Below, piece by piece: positions 10,076 through 21,765 of a stretch of DNA of 64,000 nt; position 1 is the stretch's first letter; each line of letters starts with the position of its first letter. Source of the stretch: a virus. The notes beneath the pieces were generated by a model. That model searched no databases and had not been told where the DNA came from. It was given only the letters and a program-made list of their open reading frames with translations. A program made the translations under genes and the position numbers. The stretch covers positions 1 to 64,000 of IMG/VR virus record IMGVR_UViG_3300010403_000001; one strand, 5' to 3'.

Positions 10076-10324
10076 TCAGTGGCAGGGCTCCCACCAGTCG
10101 GAGCAAAATCTATCTGCCGGCCATGGAAGTGTATCGCTTCCATTCCAGCGATTAAAGTAACGATTACTGCAGCATTTCTTATCTTCGCTCACGAACCGGC
10201 AATTTGCGCAGCATGATCCACCGACTGGAACACGTAATGCCGGAACATGATCTTTTGGATATCCGATCTCTCTATGGCGAAATTCAAGGACCTTATCCAG
10301 GGTTTCGGAGAGATCGGATTCCAT
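10076..10324 (-). CDS. Small Cys-rich HiPIP-like protein with N-terminal LDKVLEF tag
   Basis: CCANCRF...CCSN...FCSDWW pattern resembles 4Fe-4S HiPIP spacing. Confidence 0.5.
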   Translation of the reverse strand: MESDLSETLDKVLEFRHREIGYPKDHVPALRVPVGGSCCANCRFVSEDKKCCSNRYFNRWNGSDTLPWPADRFCSDWWEPCH

Positions 10325-10325
10325 G

Positions 10326-10344
10326 CCGGAAAAGGGGTAATATT
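10326..10344. promoter_or_regulatory. Operator-like palindrome, partial copy 1
   Basis: CCGGAAAAGGGGTAATATT, matching copies at 23363, 49091 and 62930. Confidence 0.55.
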
Positions 10345-17555: not shown

Positions 17556-20500
17556 TAGCAGCTACAGCCGCACCGGCAGTTGCTGGAACTGCAGCTAATC
17601 CAGTAGTTACCTTCTGATAGTTTTTGACCGGATTTCCTTTATATGCAATCAAGCGTCTGAAATAATTTGAATGCAGCGGTTCCTTGGTGGCCTCACGCAA
17701 TGCTTCTCTTTCATTATATCCCCTGAATCGTAAATCCTGGAGATGAGCACTGAGGACCTTTTGTCCCTTCTTGAGTTCTTTTACCACTTCAGGATTCTTT
17801 CTGCCGCGCCATTCACTAACAGCTTCCTTATGCCAGGAATCCAATGCCGAAGCGGGCGAATGCCTGAAAGCCGAATAATGCTCCAGGACGTGAGGATGTA
17901 TACCTGATTTAGGACTTCCAACATCCCAGATCTTTGGGGATTTACCAATAAGCCATTTGACGGGAGCGGATTCAGGATGACGCAATGCCGAACCGGTAAG
18001 CTTCCCAGTAATACCTTGGTTAAGAATATGTTGAGACGCTTCCAGATAATCAGCGACCTGCTTCCCATAGTTCGTTGGATTACCGGCTAATTTATCGATA
18101 CGCGATCGAAGTCCGATCCTGGCAAATTTACCAGCTCCTCTATACAAAGGAATCCCAGCTGCAGCTACTGCTAAACCCGCAGCCACATTGTGTTTTCTCT
18201 TAGGTTCCTGGAATCGAATCTCTTCCAATCTGGAACTTAATTCTTCCTTAGAGATTTTACCCTGAGCAACCTTTTTAAAGAAATCCTTTTCCTTCGCCTC
18301 GCCTACTTCCTTTTCTATCTGGGCCGGAGTCTTCATCTTACCAGTCACAGGATTGAATTTACTGTGTTCGTACTTAGGTGGAGTTGTCAGAGGCTTATCA
18401 CGCCACCTGGACAATTCTTCTCTGGCACCATGGAAGAACCCGCCAACTTTACCCAGCCCTGGAACATCCTTAGCATATGATCCACGCTTAAAACCTTCCA
18501 TGAGTTGCCCAATACGGCTTTGAGGATGTGCTTGCTTGGCCCAGTTAATAACTCCTCTACCACCCTTGATTGTGGCTATCAGTCCAGCAGTAGTGAGGGC
18601 TCCGGCCACCCATGGCTTTTCCCATTCGTTCTTTCGTGGACGACCGCGTGGATCAATGTTGGGTAGACCCTGACGCTTGAGATTAACATCCCTGAGCAAT
18701 CGATGTGTTCGGCCGGCATACTTTTTGACTTTCTGGGCCTGTCCGATAGTGCTGTAAGTTCTTCCGTACAGTTTCTTATGCGCCCATTCCTGCAGCCAAT
18801 CTGGACCCAGGTCGTCTGGGTCATCTGGCCTGACATCGAATTTCACCAGTTTAATCCGTGAGAGAAATGCATGTTTGGCTAGCTTCTTAAGTCCGTATCC
18901 AGCTAGAATAGTACCGCCAATAACTTCCGGAGCGAGCTCAACTCGTTTACCTCGCCAACTTCGTTCACCGAATTGATCTCTTGTAGTTTTGCCATACAGC
19001 CGAGCAGCCTTCTGGGTTGCTAAACCGATACCAGCACCAGCCAAAGTAGATTTAATTAATTTGGATGGTTTTCTTGCTGCCAGGGCACCGATACCAGCTC
19101 CGATTAATGTCGTGTGCCCATACAATCGGTCGGCTCGATCGATATCTCGTTCATGAATCTGCTTCATGTATCGATCACGAGCCACTATTTGGCGCTGACT
19201 CTGGAATTGAGTTAATTGCGATTCAGGAAGTAAGCCCTTCTGTTCAGCTTCCATTTCTTCTCGCTTTCTACGTTTGTTCTTTCTATGAGTGTATATCTTC
19301 TCGTATATCAATGGCAATGCAGCAACTCCACCGGCAACCGCCAGATCAGACTTAAGCCCAAACTGGATCAGTCTTTGCCTGGATGACATTTGTTGTTTCC
19401 TTCTTTTTTTCAGTTGTGCCAGAGTGAGTCCGACCAGGCCAGTCGCCGCACCTCCAACAAGACCGCCCACGGCGATTTTACGACCTATGCCGCTACCCTT
19501 AGGGGCAAACTTCTTAAAAAGAAGCTCACTGGCTGGATATGCTAATCCTCCTTCAATCGCTCCAATAGCAATGTCATGCGCTGTGTGATCCTGTGTTGTG
19601 CCAGCCAACTGAGCACGGACTTTATCCAGGGCACTGAACTGCACGTTTTGCCGACGGCCGTTATGCGGAGTAATGCCAATAGTTATGGTAGCGCGTTGCT
19701 CTCTGGGTTCTCTTGGTTTGGGTTGTCGAGGTTTATAGAGATTGAGGATCTCCCTGGCTTCATGCCGTTGATGCGCCCGTTTGTCGTAACGACCCAATGC
19801 ATATCCACCAACTGCACCACCAGCTAAAGTTCCGGCAGCGATCAATTTGAGTCTGCCGGCACGCCTGGCGCTCTCCTGCCCCAATCTTTCAGTCAGCTCA
19901 CCAGTCTGCCTTTCGTAGGTTGATTTTGCAGCAGTAACCCCTTCTTCACGTCCGAGTGTGTGACCCTTTTTGAATGCTTCCCCATGCTTAGCTGCATGTT
20001 CTGCACCAAGCTTTTCGGCCTGAGCTTTTAATGCTTCTTCTCCAAGATGTTCCCTGGTTTTTGCTTGCTCCCGTAGAGTTTTTATCACTCCAAGGTTCTT
20101 TGTATGGGTTTCTTGTAACGCTCGAAGCGCCCTCATGTCCATCGGCTTAATATCCTGGACTTTGCTACCACCAGCAGCCCTGATAAATTTCGTCCATTTC
20201 TGTCGAGCTATTTGAAATGTGGAAAATGGTTTAGCCTTTTTCCCAGCGAGTTTTTCGCTCTCAAGCCAGGTTCCAGGAATAGCTGTGGTGGATTTCGACA
20301 CACCTGTTTTCCCAGCCTGTCTGAAAACTTCCAAAGCTTCTTGCGCTTCACGCGGAATTGGAAACTTGGCAAACTGGATCTCTTTTAAGCGTGATTTCAT
20401 CTGCTGTGTTCGGCTGCGTTTGCGAGCTGCATGAATAGCCAAAGCGCCGCCGGCCAGTACTCCAGCGGCCCCGATACCAATCCCGAGTTTCCCAAGATGA

Positions 20501-21765
20501 GGGAAACCGGTTGCAGCTTCTGCTATCGGAGTTGTGAAAATCTTTCGTTCTTTCAAAATCTTCTGCTTAACCCCACTAAGTCCTGCAAACTTGCTGCGCT
20601 CGTACGTTGTATCCATGTGCCGCTTCAATTTCCGGATACGTCCAGGCGTAATTGGTTTGGTGGTTCTGCTGCCTTTTTGTAAAATATCCTGAATGCTGCT
20701 GACGCTAACCTCAGATAGCGGTGTGCCGCCATATTCATATGGTTTATCAGTGATTAATCCCATAGCTCCACGAGCCTGGGTTTTAATGTCTTCCGGACTT
20801 TTCCGAATCAGGAAATGCTGATGGATTTGTTTTTGGACTTCATGCTCTTCCTCTGGAGAGGCAGCAGATTTGAGTTGCTTATGTAATTTAGAAAGTTTGG
20901 ATTGCCAATCTCCCTGGTGTTCTTCAGCTATTTGGGTCATTCCTCTTGTGGCGATCCGGCTTAAACGTTCACCGGCATGAGTCCTGGCGGCCGTGGATGC
21001 CTCTTGTCGTTGTTTGGCGAGGCCCGATAGCCGCTTCTTGTATTCAACCATCCGTTCAGGATGAGCTCTGGCAGATTCAAGGCTGGCATTTTTGGCTCTG
21101 ATTATAGCCAGGCTTTCCCTTGCTTCCCCTGCCATGTAATCACGATGTAGCTTCATCTGACCCTGAATATGCTGCACTGTCTTTGAGCGTAATTCTCTGG
21201 GTCCAACCCTTTCTCCAGCATATTGCTCCTGAACTTCTTGCCTATGTCTCCCCCACACTTCACTTGTGGGAATTTTCTCTATCTCCGATTGGGCTCGAAC
21301 GTACTTCTTCCAATTCATCCGCTGCCGCTCGTAGACAGGAACGTCTTTAAATGTCTCGCCGGGCTTTATATCGGCTTCTTTAACCGTAGCCCACTGTTTA
21401 CCCTTGGGGGCGGAATATGGTTGAGCTTGCCCAGCAGCGAGAGGCCTTAACGCCTTAAGACGGGTCGCAGGTTTACCGAGTGGTTCTCCAGCTACCGGTT
21501 CCTTGAACCCACCTTCTACCTTCTGCCATCGGACAGGACGCCCAATGGTGTAGACCTGTTCAGGGTCCATCTTTTGGGATACTGCTTCTTTAATCTTTCG
21601 ACCGCTTACTGAAATGTTGTATTTGCTTTCCGGGGCATAAGCTGTGTGGCGTTCGCCGGCAGCGAATTTGATTTCGACGTTCAGCTTCCTGGCCAATCGC
21701 TTCAAAGCTGCAAGCGGGCGCACTTTACCTTCTGCGCGAGGCACTGATTCTGTGGTGTTGAACAC
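17518..21765 (-). CDS. Large basic polyprotein (1415 aa), probable internal head / ejection protein
   Basis: N-terminus mimics the capsid N-terminus; about 7 xxF junction motifs; several Gly/Ala-rich hydrophobic helices; lies between portal and protease. Confidence 0.65.
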   Translation of the reverse strand: MFNTTESVPRAEGKVRPLAALKRLARKLNVEIKFAAGERHTAYAPESKYNISVSGRKIKEAVSQKMDPEQVYTIGRPVRWQKVEGGFKEPVAGEPLGKPATRLKALRPLAAGQAQPYSAPKGKQWATVKEADIKPGETFKDVPVYERQRMNWKKYVRAQSEIEKIPTSEVWGRHRQEVQEQYAGERVGPRELRSKTVQHIQGQMKLHRDYMAGEARESLAIIRAKNASLESARAHPERMVEYKKRLSGLAKQRQEASTAARTHAGERLSRIATRGMTQIAEEHQGDWQSKLSKLHKQLKSAASPEEEHEVQKQIHQHFLIRKSPEDIKTQARGAMGLITDKPYEYGGTPLSEVSVSSIQDILQKGSRTTKPITPGRIRKLKRHMDTTYERSKFAGLSGVKQKILKERKIFTTPIAEAATGFPHLGKLGIGIGAAGVLAGGALAIHAARKRSRTQQMKSRLKEIQFAKFPIPREAQEALEVFRQAGKTGVSKSTTAIPGTWLESEKLAGKKAKPFSTFQIARQKWTKFIRAAGGSKVQDIKPMDMRALRALQETHTKNLGVIKTLREQAKTREHLGEEALKAQAEKLGAEHAAKHGEAFKKGHTLGREEGVTAAKSTYERQTGELTERLGQESARRAGRLKLIAAGTLAGGAVGGYALGRYDKRAHQRHEAREILNLYKPRQPKPREPREQRATITIGITPHNGRRQNVQFSALDKVRAQLAGTTQDHTAHDIAIGAIEGGLAYPASELLFKKFAPKGSGIGRKIAVGGLVGGAATGLVGLTLAQLKKRRKQQMSSRQRLIQFGLKSDLAVAGGVAALPLIYEKIYTHRKNKRRKREEMEAEQKGLLPESQLTQFQSQRQIVARDRYMKQIHERDIDRADRLYGHTTLIGAGIGALAARKPSKLIKSTLAGAGIGLATQKAARLYGKTTRDQFGERSWRGKRVELAPEVIGGTILAGYGLKKLAKHAFLSRIKLVKFDVRPDDPDDLGPDWLQEWAHKKLYGRTYSTIGQAQKVKKYAGRTHRLLRDVNLKRQGLPNIDPRGRPRKNEWEKPWVAGALTTAGLIATIKGGRGVINWAKQAHPQSRIGQLMEGFKRGSYAKDVPGLGKVGGFFHGAREELSRWRDKPLTTPPKYEHSKFNPVTGKMKTPAQIEKEVGEAKEKDFFKKVAQGKISKEELSSRLEEIRFQEPKRKHNVAAGLAVAAAGIPLYRGAGKFARIGLRSRIDKLAGNPTNYGKQVADYLEASQHILNQGITGKLTGSALRHPESAPVKWLIGKSPKIWDVGSPKSGIHPHVLEHYSAFRHSPASALDSWHKEAVSEWRGRKNPEVVKELKKGQKVLSAHLQDLRFRGYNEREALREATKEPLHSNYFRRLIAYKGNPVKNYQKVTTGLAAVPATAGAAVAATTRKDRNRVSVR

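Follow-up and report, generated by a model that had tools for sequence, protein, structure and literature searches.

The IMG/VR virus record IMGVR_UViG_3300010403_000001 is a genome of 79,711 bp with direct terminal repeats, and the window analysed here is its first 64 kb (positions 1 to 64,000). Between the portal and capsid genes of this phage lies a minus-strand gene series whose products carry recurring copies of a short peptide motif, with the consensus LSAKLDDLIEF, and are candidates for cargo enclosed in the head. In minus-strand order, the series encodes the portal protein, proteins of 1415, 197, 653, 282, 205, 82, 439 and 127 residues, and the major capsid protein. Its features are given below, with the islands of small open reading frames (ORFs) that break the series of head-internal genes.

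24976 to 26811, minus strand: portal protein of the lambda family, upstream edge of the cargo region (Pfam PF05136, E 4.6e-26; PHROG portal).
21766 to 24975, opposite strand: first island of small ORFs.
17518 to 21765, minus strand: 1415-residue giant candidate head-internal protein, with modules comprising a Gly-rich hydrophobic segment, a basic patch and a short motif variant.
16458 to 17051, minus strand: 197-residue candidate cargo protein, one motif (F131, nucleotides 16659-16679, 22.8 bits).
14495 to 16456, minus strand: 653-residue candidate polyvalent cargo protein, motifs at nucleotides 16409-16429, 16112-16132 and 15806-15826.
12056 to 14494, opposite strand: second island of small ORFs.
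11207 to 12055, minus strand: 282-residue candidate cargo protein, motifs F66 and F243 (nucleotides 11858-11878 and 11327-11347) and a weak third, F167.
10590 to 11207, minus strand: 205-residue candidate cargo protein, motifs F48 and F119 (nucleotides 11064-11084 and 10851-10871).
10076 to 10324, minus strand: 82-residue candidate cargo protein, motif at nucleotides 10280-10300 (18.9-23 bits).
8442 to 9761, minus strand: 439-residue protein, by predicted fold a prohead protease in residues 1 to ~170, joined to a coiled-coil scaffold.
7044 to 8021, minus strand: major capsid protein, downstream edge (PHROG_1005 major head protein, E 1.1e-27).

The original prediction described six motif genes between the portal and the protease. 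Their position was confirmed, but they are not contiguous, as the two islands interrupt them. The islands yielded one sub-threshold Pfam match (DUF6915). Both are missing from the closest complete relative, L012, where the portal and giant genes are adjacent; because the flanking head genes adjoin there, the islands look like inserted accessory cassettes.

All ORFs and motif strings named in that prediction were recovered at its coordinates. The strict pattern L[DG]x[LIV][LIV]xF occurs in nine copies, all in five minus-strand genes spanning 10076-17051 (10076-10324, 10590-11207, 11207-12055, 14495-16456 and 16458-17051), and its sole other six-frame match in the 79,711-bp genome is a 24-residue ORF. 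Composition-preserving shuffles give an expectation of 0.46 copies per 25,653-residue proteome and of 0.019 for the five proteins. With a hidden Markov model (HMM) built from the nine 19-mers, the nine score 18-26 bits, and no other site in the proteome exceeds 3.4 bits. The looser pattern [LIV]xF was dropped as a definition of the motif, as it is not enriched, accounting for 27% of F residues in cargo proteins versus 22% elsewhere. For this reason, the weaker matches proposed earlier in the protease-scaffold (EICF, AGLF, LRLF) and portal (EHQF) were not counted as copies; they lack statistical support.

The giant protein carries a variant that is one residue shorter, M/L-S-S-R-x-x-x-I-x-F, mostly directly after a Gly-rich hydrophobic segment and a basic patch. 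Its copies were scored by an HMM built from relatives' sites only, all on the minus strand:

19360 to 19389: F802, MSSRQRLIQF, best match of the proteome (16.0 bits).
20371 to 20400: F465, MKSRLKEIQF, second-best match of the proteome (9.1 bits).
18211 to 18240: F1185, LSSRLEEIRF, third-best match of the proteome (4.9 bits).
21664 to 21693: F34, ARKLNVEIKF, corresponding to RSEIRF in L012 and IIRF in relative L013.
18838 to 18867: probable copy F976, FLSRIKLVKF, missed by the HMM and aligned with AIEF (L013) and LIEF (relative L014).
19636 to 19665: weak candidate F710, RRQNVQF, kept only in L012 as NVEF, with no HMM support.
19204 to 19233: weak candidate F854, ESQLTQF, aligned with KPIRF of L014, with no HMM support.

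Three of these copies are thus well supported, two moderately (F34 and F976) and two weakly. The F465 copy follows the hydrophobic segment 424-447 and a basic patch, and its IQF is kept in L012 and L014; F1185 is invariant across four giant homologues. Across the six genes, about 12-14 of the roughly 17 copies first proposed are solid, and F710, F854 and EKTIQF of gene 11207 are weak. The giant protein has six hydrophobic Gly-rich segments, homologues of 1423-1577 residues adjoin the portal in relatives, and it is probably an ejection or conduit polyprotein.

Capsid-protein searches of IMG/VR returned 22 related loci with 40-99% identity, which have in common a layout of portal, giant protein (827-1577 residues), several mid-sized proteins, protease-scaffold, small protein and capsid protein. 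An iterated motif HMM, applied to the window and 10 related loci with a cut-off of at least 6 bits, detected 37 sites. As had been expected, all lie in co-oriented portal-to-protease genes, with none on the downstream side of the capsid gene or in the rest of the genome. In a search of 1.84 billion representative proteins, a 30-column profile matched 71 of them at E<=1e-3, each with 2-10 matched stretches. The pooled set amounts to 191 distinct instances in 105 proteins, always at the portal-to-protease position in the loci examined.

Over these 191 instances, the consensus LSAKLDDLIEF is preceded by a heptad-like K/R-L-V-E. The most conserved positions are D-5 (178/191), I-2 (177/191) and F0 (180/191), and conservation drops sharply at +1, where A (23%) and G (16%) are followed by R/K/Q/E in a varied mixture. 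The median spacing of copies is 117 residues. In 41 of the 105 proteins the first F falls at residue 12-25, which defines an N-terminal leader of ~16-20 residues, and the proteins behind such leaders are unrelated modules. One relative's protein of 962 residues has six copies of LSARE-x-LD-x-I-x-F-[AG]. The consensus is replaced by LSAKLRGLKEF in relatives with capsid proteins 56-61% identical, and a locus at 47% capsid identity retains SKLDDCLEF. Scanning IMG/VR with back-translated AKLDxhIEF gave clusters in this clade only; single hits outside it, such as L087, a coiled-coil protein in a replication region, were judged chance. A genomic locus search with the distant motif protein P0097 gave no match, and no paper in the literature contains the motif strings. 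The motif is a real protein-level short linear motif that marks module boundaries and is confined to portal-to-protease genes, as first proposed.

The modules behind the motif are best characterized in the 653-residue protein, which consists, in order, of a motif, a DGNHR module, a motif, an unnamed module, a motif, a LigD-type 3'-phosphoesterase and an ATP-dependent ligase. The LigD-like assignment made at first reading is borne out by the match of residues 247-361 to a solved 3'-phosphoesterase domain (3p4h, E 4.3e-13). Residues 485-649 match the ATP-dependent ligases 4d05 and 6gdr (E ~1e-6), the ligase OB domain matches Pfam PF14743 (E 1.1e-9), and PF13298 is precomputed on most homologues. 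The DGNHR module looks ParB-like, a label without confirmation in Pfam, where its matches are sub-threshold (PF23719, E 0.003). In an AlphaFold2 model based on 49 homologues, residues 230-653 have a predicted local distance difference test (pLDDT) score above 93. The three motifs form helices at residues 2-18, 103-117 and 203-218, modelled at low confidence, which end 1-3 residues past F and continue into coil.

We compared 69 homologues of this protein. In homologues with at least 49% identity and a detected motif, the phosphoesterase-ligase follows directly after the motif (..LIEF|KLYQP), both in single-module proteins of 438-453 residues with a 14-19-residue leader and in polyproteins of 546-1017 residues. 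Three close homologues have only a degenerate xIxF or xxF at the motif spot, and three further ones begin inside the phosphoesterase-ligase module and are probably truncated calls. Homologues with 46% identity or less are without the motif. The motif-free distant homologues (P0028-P0063) have SNF2-type helicase, NUDIX or PhoE-type phosphatase domains as fusion partners, and judging by these fusions the end-healing ligase seems to recur as a building block in large metagenomic multi-domain proteins.

Among the smaller candidates, the 197-residue protein has a homologue in L012, a hydrophobic segment (154-170) and a C-terminal Gly-zipper segment with a basic tail. The 282-residue protein also has a Gly-rich hydrophobic segment. 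The final module of the 205-residue protein begins with DPRPRN, followed by a Gly-zipper and basic tail; a DPRPR module recurs behind the last motif in many proteins, and the ESM Atlas gave no usable match for this gene (10590). The 82-residue protein, 97.6% identical in the relative L010, consists of a 15-residue N-terminal leader with the motif and a Cys-rich module (10076-10279). For this module, the ESM Atlas returned weak structural look-alikes (template modelling score, TM, ~0.5; a lead only) among small viral proteins and Cys-rich domains fused to the portals of other phages (DUF3721, HIPIP-like). Most modules of the motif proteins have no Pfam family; a few contain Gly-zipper, DUF6321 or Zn-peptidase domains, with Zn_peptidase_2 in 1 of 70.

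The many Gly-zipper hydrophobic segments with basic patches resemble those of membrane-inserting ejection proteins and could point to a role of the motif after ejection, as a translocation signal, a membrane-interface helix for a trans-envelope conduit or a host-protein-binding motif. A cleaved C-terminal ..DDLIEF would also loosely resemble the acidic tail of single-stranded DNA-binding protein, which ends in F, although this is a lead only. However, the motif also precedes soluble enzymes such as the phosphoesterase-ligase, and its charge shifts between subclades from LDDLIEF to LRGLKEF, a change more readily explained by co-evolution with a phage partner than by binding to a conserved host hub. 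We consider a post-ejection role very unlikely.

Modules are exchanged at motif boundaries among relatives, in line with the original prediction. Compared with L012, the 653-residue protein has an extra module (116-210) exactly between two motif copies. Similarly, L010, with a 99% identical capsid protein, has an extra module of ~125 residues between motif copies when compared with the 205-residue protein. In the relative L004, a 704-residue protein has the N-terminal module of gene 11207 at its start and the C-terminal module of gene 10590 at its end, other modules and motifs filling the middle.

Such indels bounded by motif copies would also be expected if the repeat were a DNA-level recombination linker, retained as a patch of homology at which cassettes are exchanged, its peptide being without function. 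The DNA 13-mer reported to be common to two copies was confirmed at 15813 and 16119 and could be read in the same way. The 13-mer, however, merely encodes identical LDDLI residues, and other copies use different codons, so that selection acts on the peptide. Further, codons vary while amino acids are kept across relatives with capsid proteins just 47-78% identical, and neither the reading frame nor the position of F ever shifts. The DNA-level repeat was rejected on the codon differences, and we give the linker explanation next to no credence.

The protein encoded at 8442-9761 was correctly recognized at first reading as a protease-scaffold. Its protease domain, modelled by AlphaFold2 with a pLDDT of 73, has the fold of T4 gp21: the top Foldseek match is 5jbl (E 1.9e-3, TM 0.5), and VIA gave Z 11.1 and a root-mean-square deviation of 3.9 A over 148 residues to gp21, the next-best matches being herpesvirus proteases at Z 5.6. 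Residues H44, H72, H103, S123 and G164-L165-F166 are invariant in 16 homologues. An invariant PAAN-x-GLF closes the domain (9222-9260) and is followed ~10 residues on, in most of the 16 homologues, by a conserved Met. From this pattern, the Met near residue 177 is probably a nested scaffold start, and the protease-scaffold is possibly autocleaved after F166. Beyond the protease domain, the chain is a Q/E-rich coiled coil, and GELHEF is conserved in its C-terminal region. This near-invariant element (8562-8600, residues ~388-400) is preceded by ..FSAN-DG and loosely resembles the motif end L-I-E-F; one relative's cargo leader reads AKLDGALHEF, and the motif HMM gives GELHEF no score. Judged by this resemblance, the cargo helix might imitate part of the scaffold. 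The N-terminal region of the portal (26680-26720, residues ~30-45) has a conserved (E)IQF/HQF/HEF, then S/G, in five relatives. This site resembles the short variant of the giant protein and may be a processing site.

The position directly behind F appears to be a functional boundary, as suggested by the conservation stop, a junction in L014 and C-terminal motif copies. In our data set, the pentapeptide [VI]PR[ATS][DE] is confined to capsid proteins and the giant proteins encoded by the window and by L012, each time at residue 8, and to L014. There, an added ParB-like module (sub-threshold Pfam match DUF6551, E 0.0026) ends in ..SSRSPLIQF and is followed by M-HCTAEA-VPRAD inside the giant protein (2169-2204), the residue directly after F being Met and the pentapeptide lying eight residues past F. 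By this 12-residue match, the free N-terminus of the giant protein in the window and L012 is the segment right behind the motif F in L014. An automatic BLAST search for N-terminus-after-F fusions found no case. In addition, three proteins end 0-2 residues past a motif copy. These observations fit cleavage after F, and also a helix end that marks a module border.

The boundary bears on whether the motif is purely a polyprotein processing site, representing P11-P1 recognition by the prohead protease with no targeting role, and the cargo entering by other means such as mimicry of the capsid N-terminus by the giant protein or association with the portal. T4 gp21 cleaves at I/L-x-E, which the I/L/V-x-F end of the motif resembles, and the protease here has the gp21 fold. 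Conservation lies wholly on the non-prime side and stops at F, the L014 junction falls exactly behind F, and the invariant GLF closes the protease domain. Yet 11-15 conserved residues in a helical heptad pattern far exceed the needs of a protease site. Removal of the ~16-20-residue leader from 41 of the 105 proteins would have no evident purpose, and the three proteins that end 0-2 residues past a motif are hard to reconcile with processing. Pure processing is therefore an unlikely account of the motif.

The predicted helix and the three proteins ending just after a motif suit docking better than cleavage alone. Microcompartment encapsulation peptides and encapsulin cargo-loading peptides are short, amphipathic, N- or C-terminal or interdomain, joined by a flexible linker, and load unrelated enzymes; encapsulin shells have the HK97 fold, and these peptides are not known to be cleaved. 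The motif matches this organisation in its predicted amphipathic helix and linker and in its N-terminal, internal and extreme C-terminal positions, with no sequence relation and with a virus capsid containing a protease and DNA as the container. It could thus be a docking or oligomerisation helix that binds scaffold or shell, or bundles into an internal core, the proteins staying intact. Packaging without processing has a precedent in the virion RNA polymerase of phage N4 (PMC5512222). This account is at odds with the sharp boundary at F and with the residue after F in L014, which equals a natural N-terminus. It also leaves aside a gp21-type protease fused to the scaffold, whereas such proteases normally process internal head proteins (PMC5694885), and ejecting a 1415-residue protein whole would be difficult given its six hydrophobic segments. 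We regard docking without cleavage as improbable.

A closer parallel is the capsid-targeting sequence (CTS) of T4, a 10-20-residue N-terminal propeptide common to diverse internal proteins, which directs them to the scaffolding core and which gp21 removes (PMC3012670, PMC5694885). The CTS analogy drawn originally fits the 41 motif proteins with an N-terminal leader. As in T4 (IPI-III, Alt), a short leader is the sole common element of unrelated, fast-evolving cargo, the protease has the gp21 fold, and the leader ends in a hydrophobic-x-P1 sequence (I/L/V-x-F here, I/L-x-E in T4). Unlike the CTS, to which it has no sequence similarity, the motif ends in F rather than E, is longer and predicted to be helical, and is repeated as a linker within polypeptides (up to 6 copies in the loci examined) and placed C-terminally. 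Moreover, the protease here is fused to the scaffold.

Further likenesses are found in other phages. In phiKZ/SPN3US-like phages, head-internal propeptides of >100 residues are cut at A/S/G-x-E and thought to target the prohead (PMC5694885). A prohead protease is likewise found alongside head-internal proteins with a short motif, at which cutting is proposed here; no single common helix and no modular polyproteins with a repeated tag have been reported for phiKZ/SPN3US. In Staphylococcus phage 80alpha, the host protease Prp cuts a leader needed for assembly between F and A (PMC5744158), and the leader is common to non-homologous head proteins. The motif here differs from that leader in sequence and is found on cargo rather than on capsid protein or scaffold, and the resident protease is probably a gp21-type serine protease. 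No match to PF04327 (Prp) was found at E<=1 in the 79.7-kb phage genome, and phage-encoded Prp-type processing was rejected and kept only as an analogy; the host may carry a Prp.

The polyvalent proteins of Iyer et al. (2017) carry several effector domains per polypeptide, are encoded near head genes and are predicted to be delivered with the DNA (PMC5512222). Gene 14495 similarly encodes unrelated domains in one polypeptide between portal and protease, and its nucleic-acid enzymes, with a possibly ParB-like module that Pfam leaves unconfirmed, would fit the inventory of polyvalent proteins. The work on polyvalent proteins describes no delimiter motif between domains, whereas motif copies delimit modules here. 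Processing of polyvalent proteins is attributed to embedded zincin peptidase domains; here, as noted, a Zn peptidase was found in 1 of 70 proteins.

In our best reading, which we give about an even chance, the motif is a combined tag, a docking or encapsulation helix on modular cargo that is cut after F. The observed specificity, conservation and position of the motif, its predicted helix, the module exchange and the protease fold are the starting point, and packaging, docking, the docking partner and cleavage are inferred from sequence, gene position and analogy. A portable amphipathic helix of ~11-15 residues would mark proteins or modules bound for the procapsid interior, serving single-module cargo as an N-terminal leader and polyproteins as the linker between their modules. 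It would dock its module on an assembly partner, most plausibly the coiled-coil scaffold or core, with the capsid inner surface or other tagged proteins as alternatives, and the cargo would therefore be enclosed as the shell forms. This cargo would include the LigD-type end-healing/ligase enzyme, the Cys-rich module, Gly-zipper membrane-type modules and the giant ejection protein. The gp21-like prohead protease would probably cut behind the invariant Phe (P3 I/L/V, P1 F) and free single modules to be ejected together with the DNA. As nothing but the tag is common to them, modules could be inserted, lost or swapped between its copies. Circumstantial support for cleavage after F comes from the conservation stop, the L014 junction and the parallel of I/L/V-x-F to T4.

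Several points weigh against the combined tag. The presence of the cargo in virions is argued from gene position and analogy only, and the docking partner is a proposal with several candidates. A stable helix would be a poor protease substrate, the P1' position is unrestricted (A 23%, G 16%, then R/K/Q/E), and extreme C-terminal copies and single-module leaders need no cleavage. Pfam assigns no protease family to gene 8442. Finally, a recent gene fusion or an internal start of translation would explain the L014 junction just as well.

The giant protein may have a second route into the head. Its N-terminus (21730-21765), MFNTTESVPRAE, and that of the capsid protein (7986-8021), MFNTTDSVPRAD, are identical at 10/12 residues, with nearly all codons different. 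In phage 80alpha, the scaffold touches the N-arm helix of the capsid protein (PMC5744158). By its sequence, the mimic of the capsid N-arm may recruit the giant protein via the scaffold, and it suggests a second loading route that may exploit the handle offered by the capsid protein to the scaffold. A bolder version of the combined tag, which we hold only tentatively and at somewhat less than an even chance, is a self-sufficient and transferable loading code. Anything placed behind or between copies of LSAKLDDLIEF would be enclosed, cut after F and delivered, with the capsid mimic of the giant protein as a second loader.

Elsewhere in the genome, the terminase large subunit (38569-40410) and a helicase (58292-59944) are recognizable, and no PHROG family matched the large presumed tail proteins of 1456, 727, 589 and 515 residues (genome positions 1-7000 and 64001-79711). 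The clade is thinly represented in present phage family libraries. Among 50,697 phage records, no cultured relative was found by DNA, capsid protein or giant protein, and the portal gave only remote matches (~22% identity); no prophage relative was found in GTDB genomes.

How phages choose the proteins that are enclosed in the head and injected is understood for few systems, namely the T4 CTS, the ejection proteins of P22 and T7 and the propeptides of phiKZ-like phages. The concepts of a targeting propeptide, of polyvalent packaged proteins (PMC5512222) and of an F|A leader, as in 80alpha (PMC5744158), are known already; we could not find a description of one conserved helix that opens, links and ends exchangeable modules throughout a clade. 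A single short helix appears to define the whole cargo set in this clade, and the 191 instances in 105 proteins would provide a predictor of the virion cargo of an uncultured clade from sequence. The motif is also a candidate packaging tag for loading foreign proteins into HK97-type capsids. Cargo repertoires would evolve by cassette exchange at tag copies, and the modules include an end-healing/ligase enzyme, inferred to be packaged, and dozens of modules without annotated function that may act on host defences. If the loading code is true, the clade would own a plug-and-play cassette system for injected effectors.

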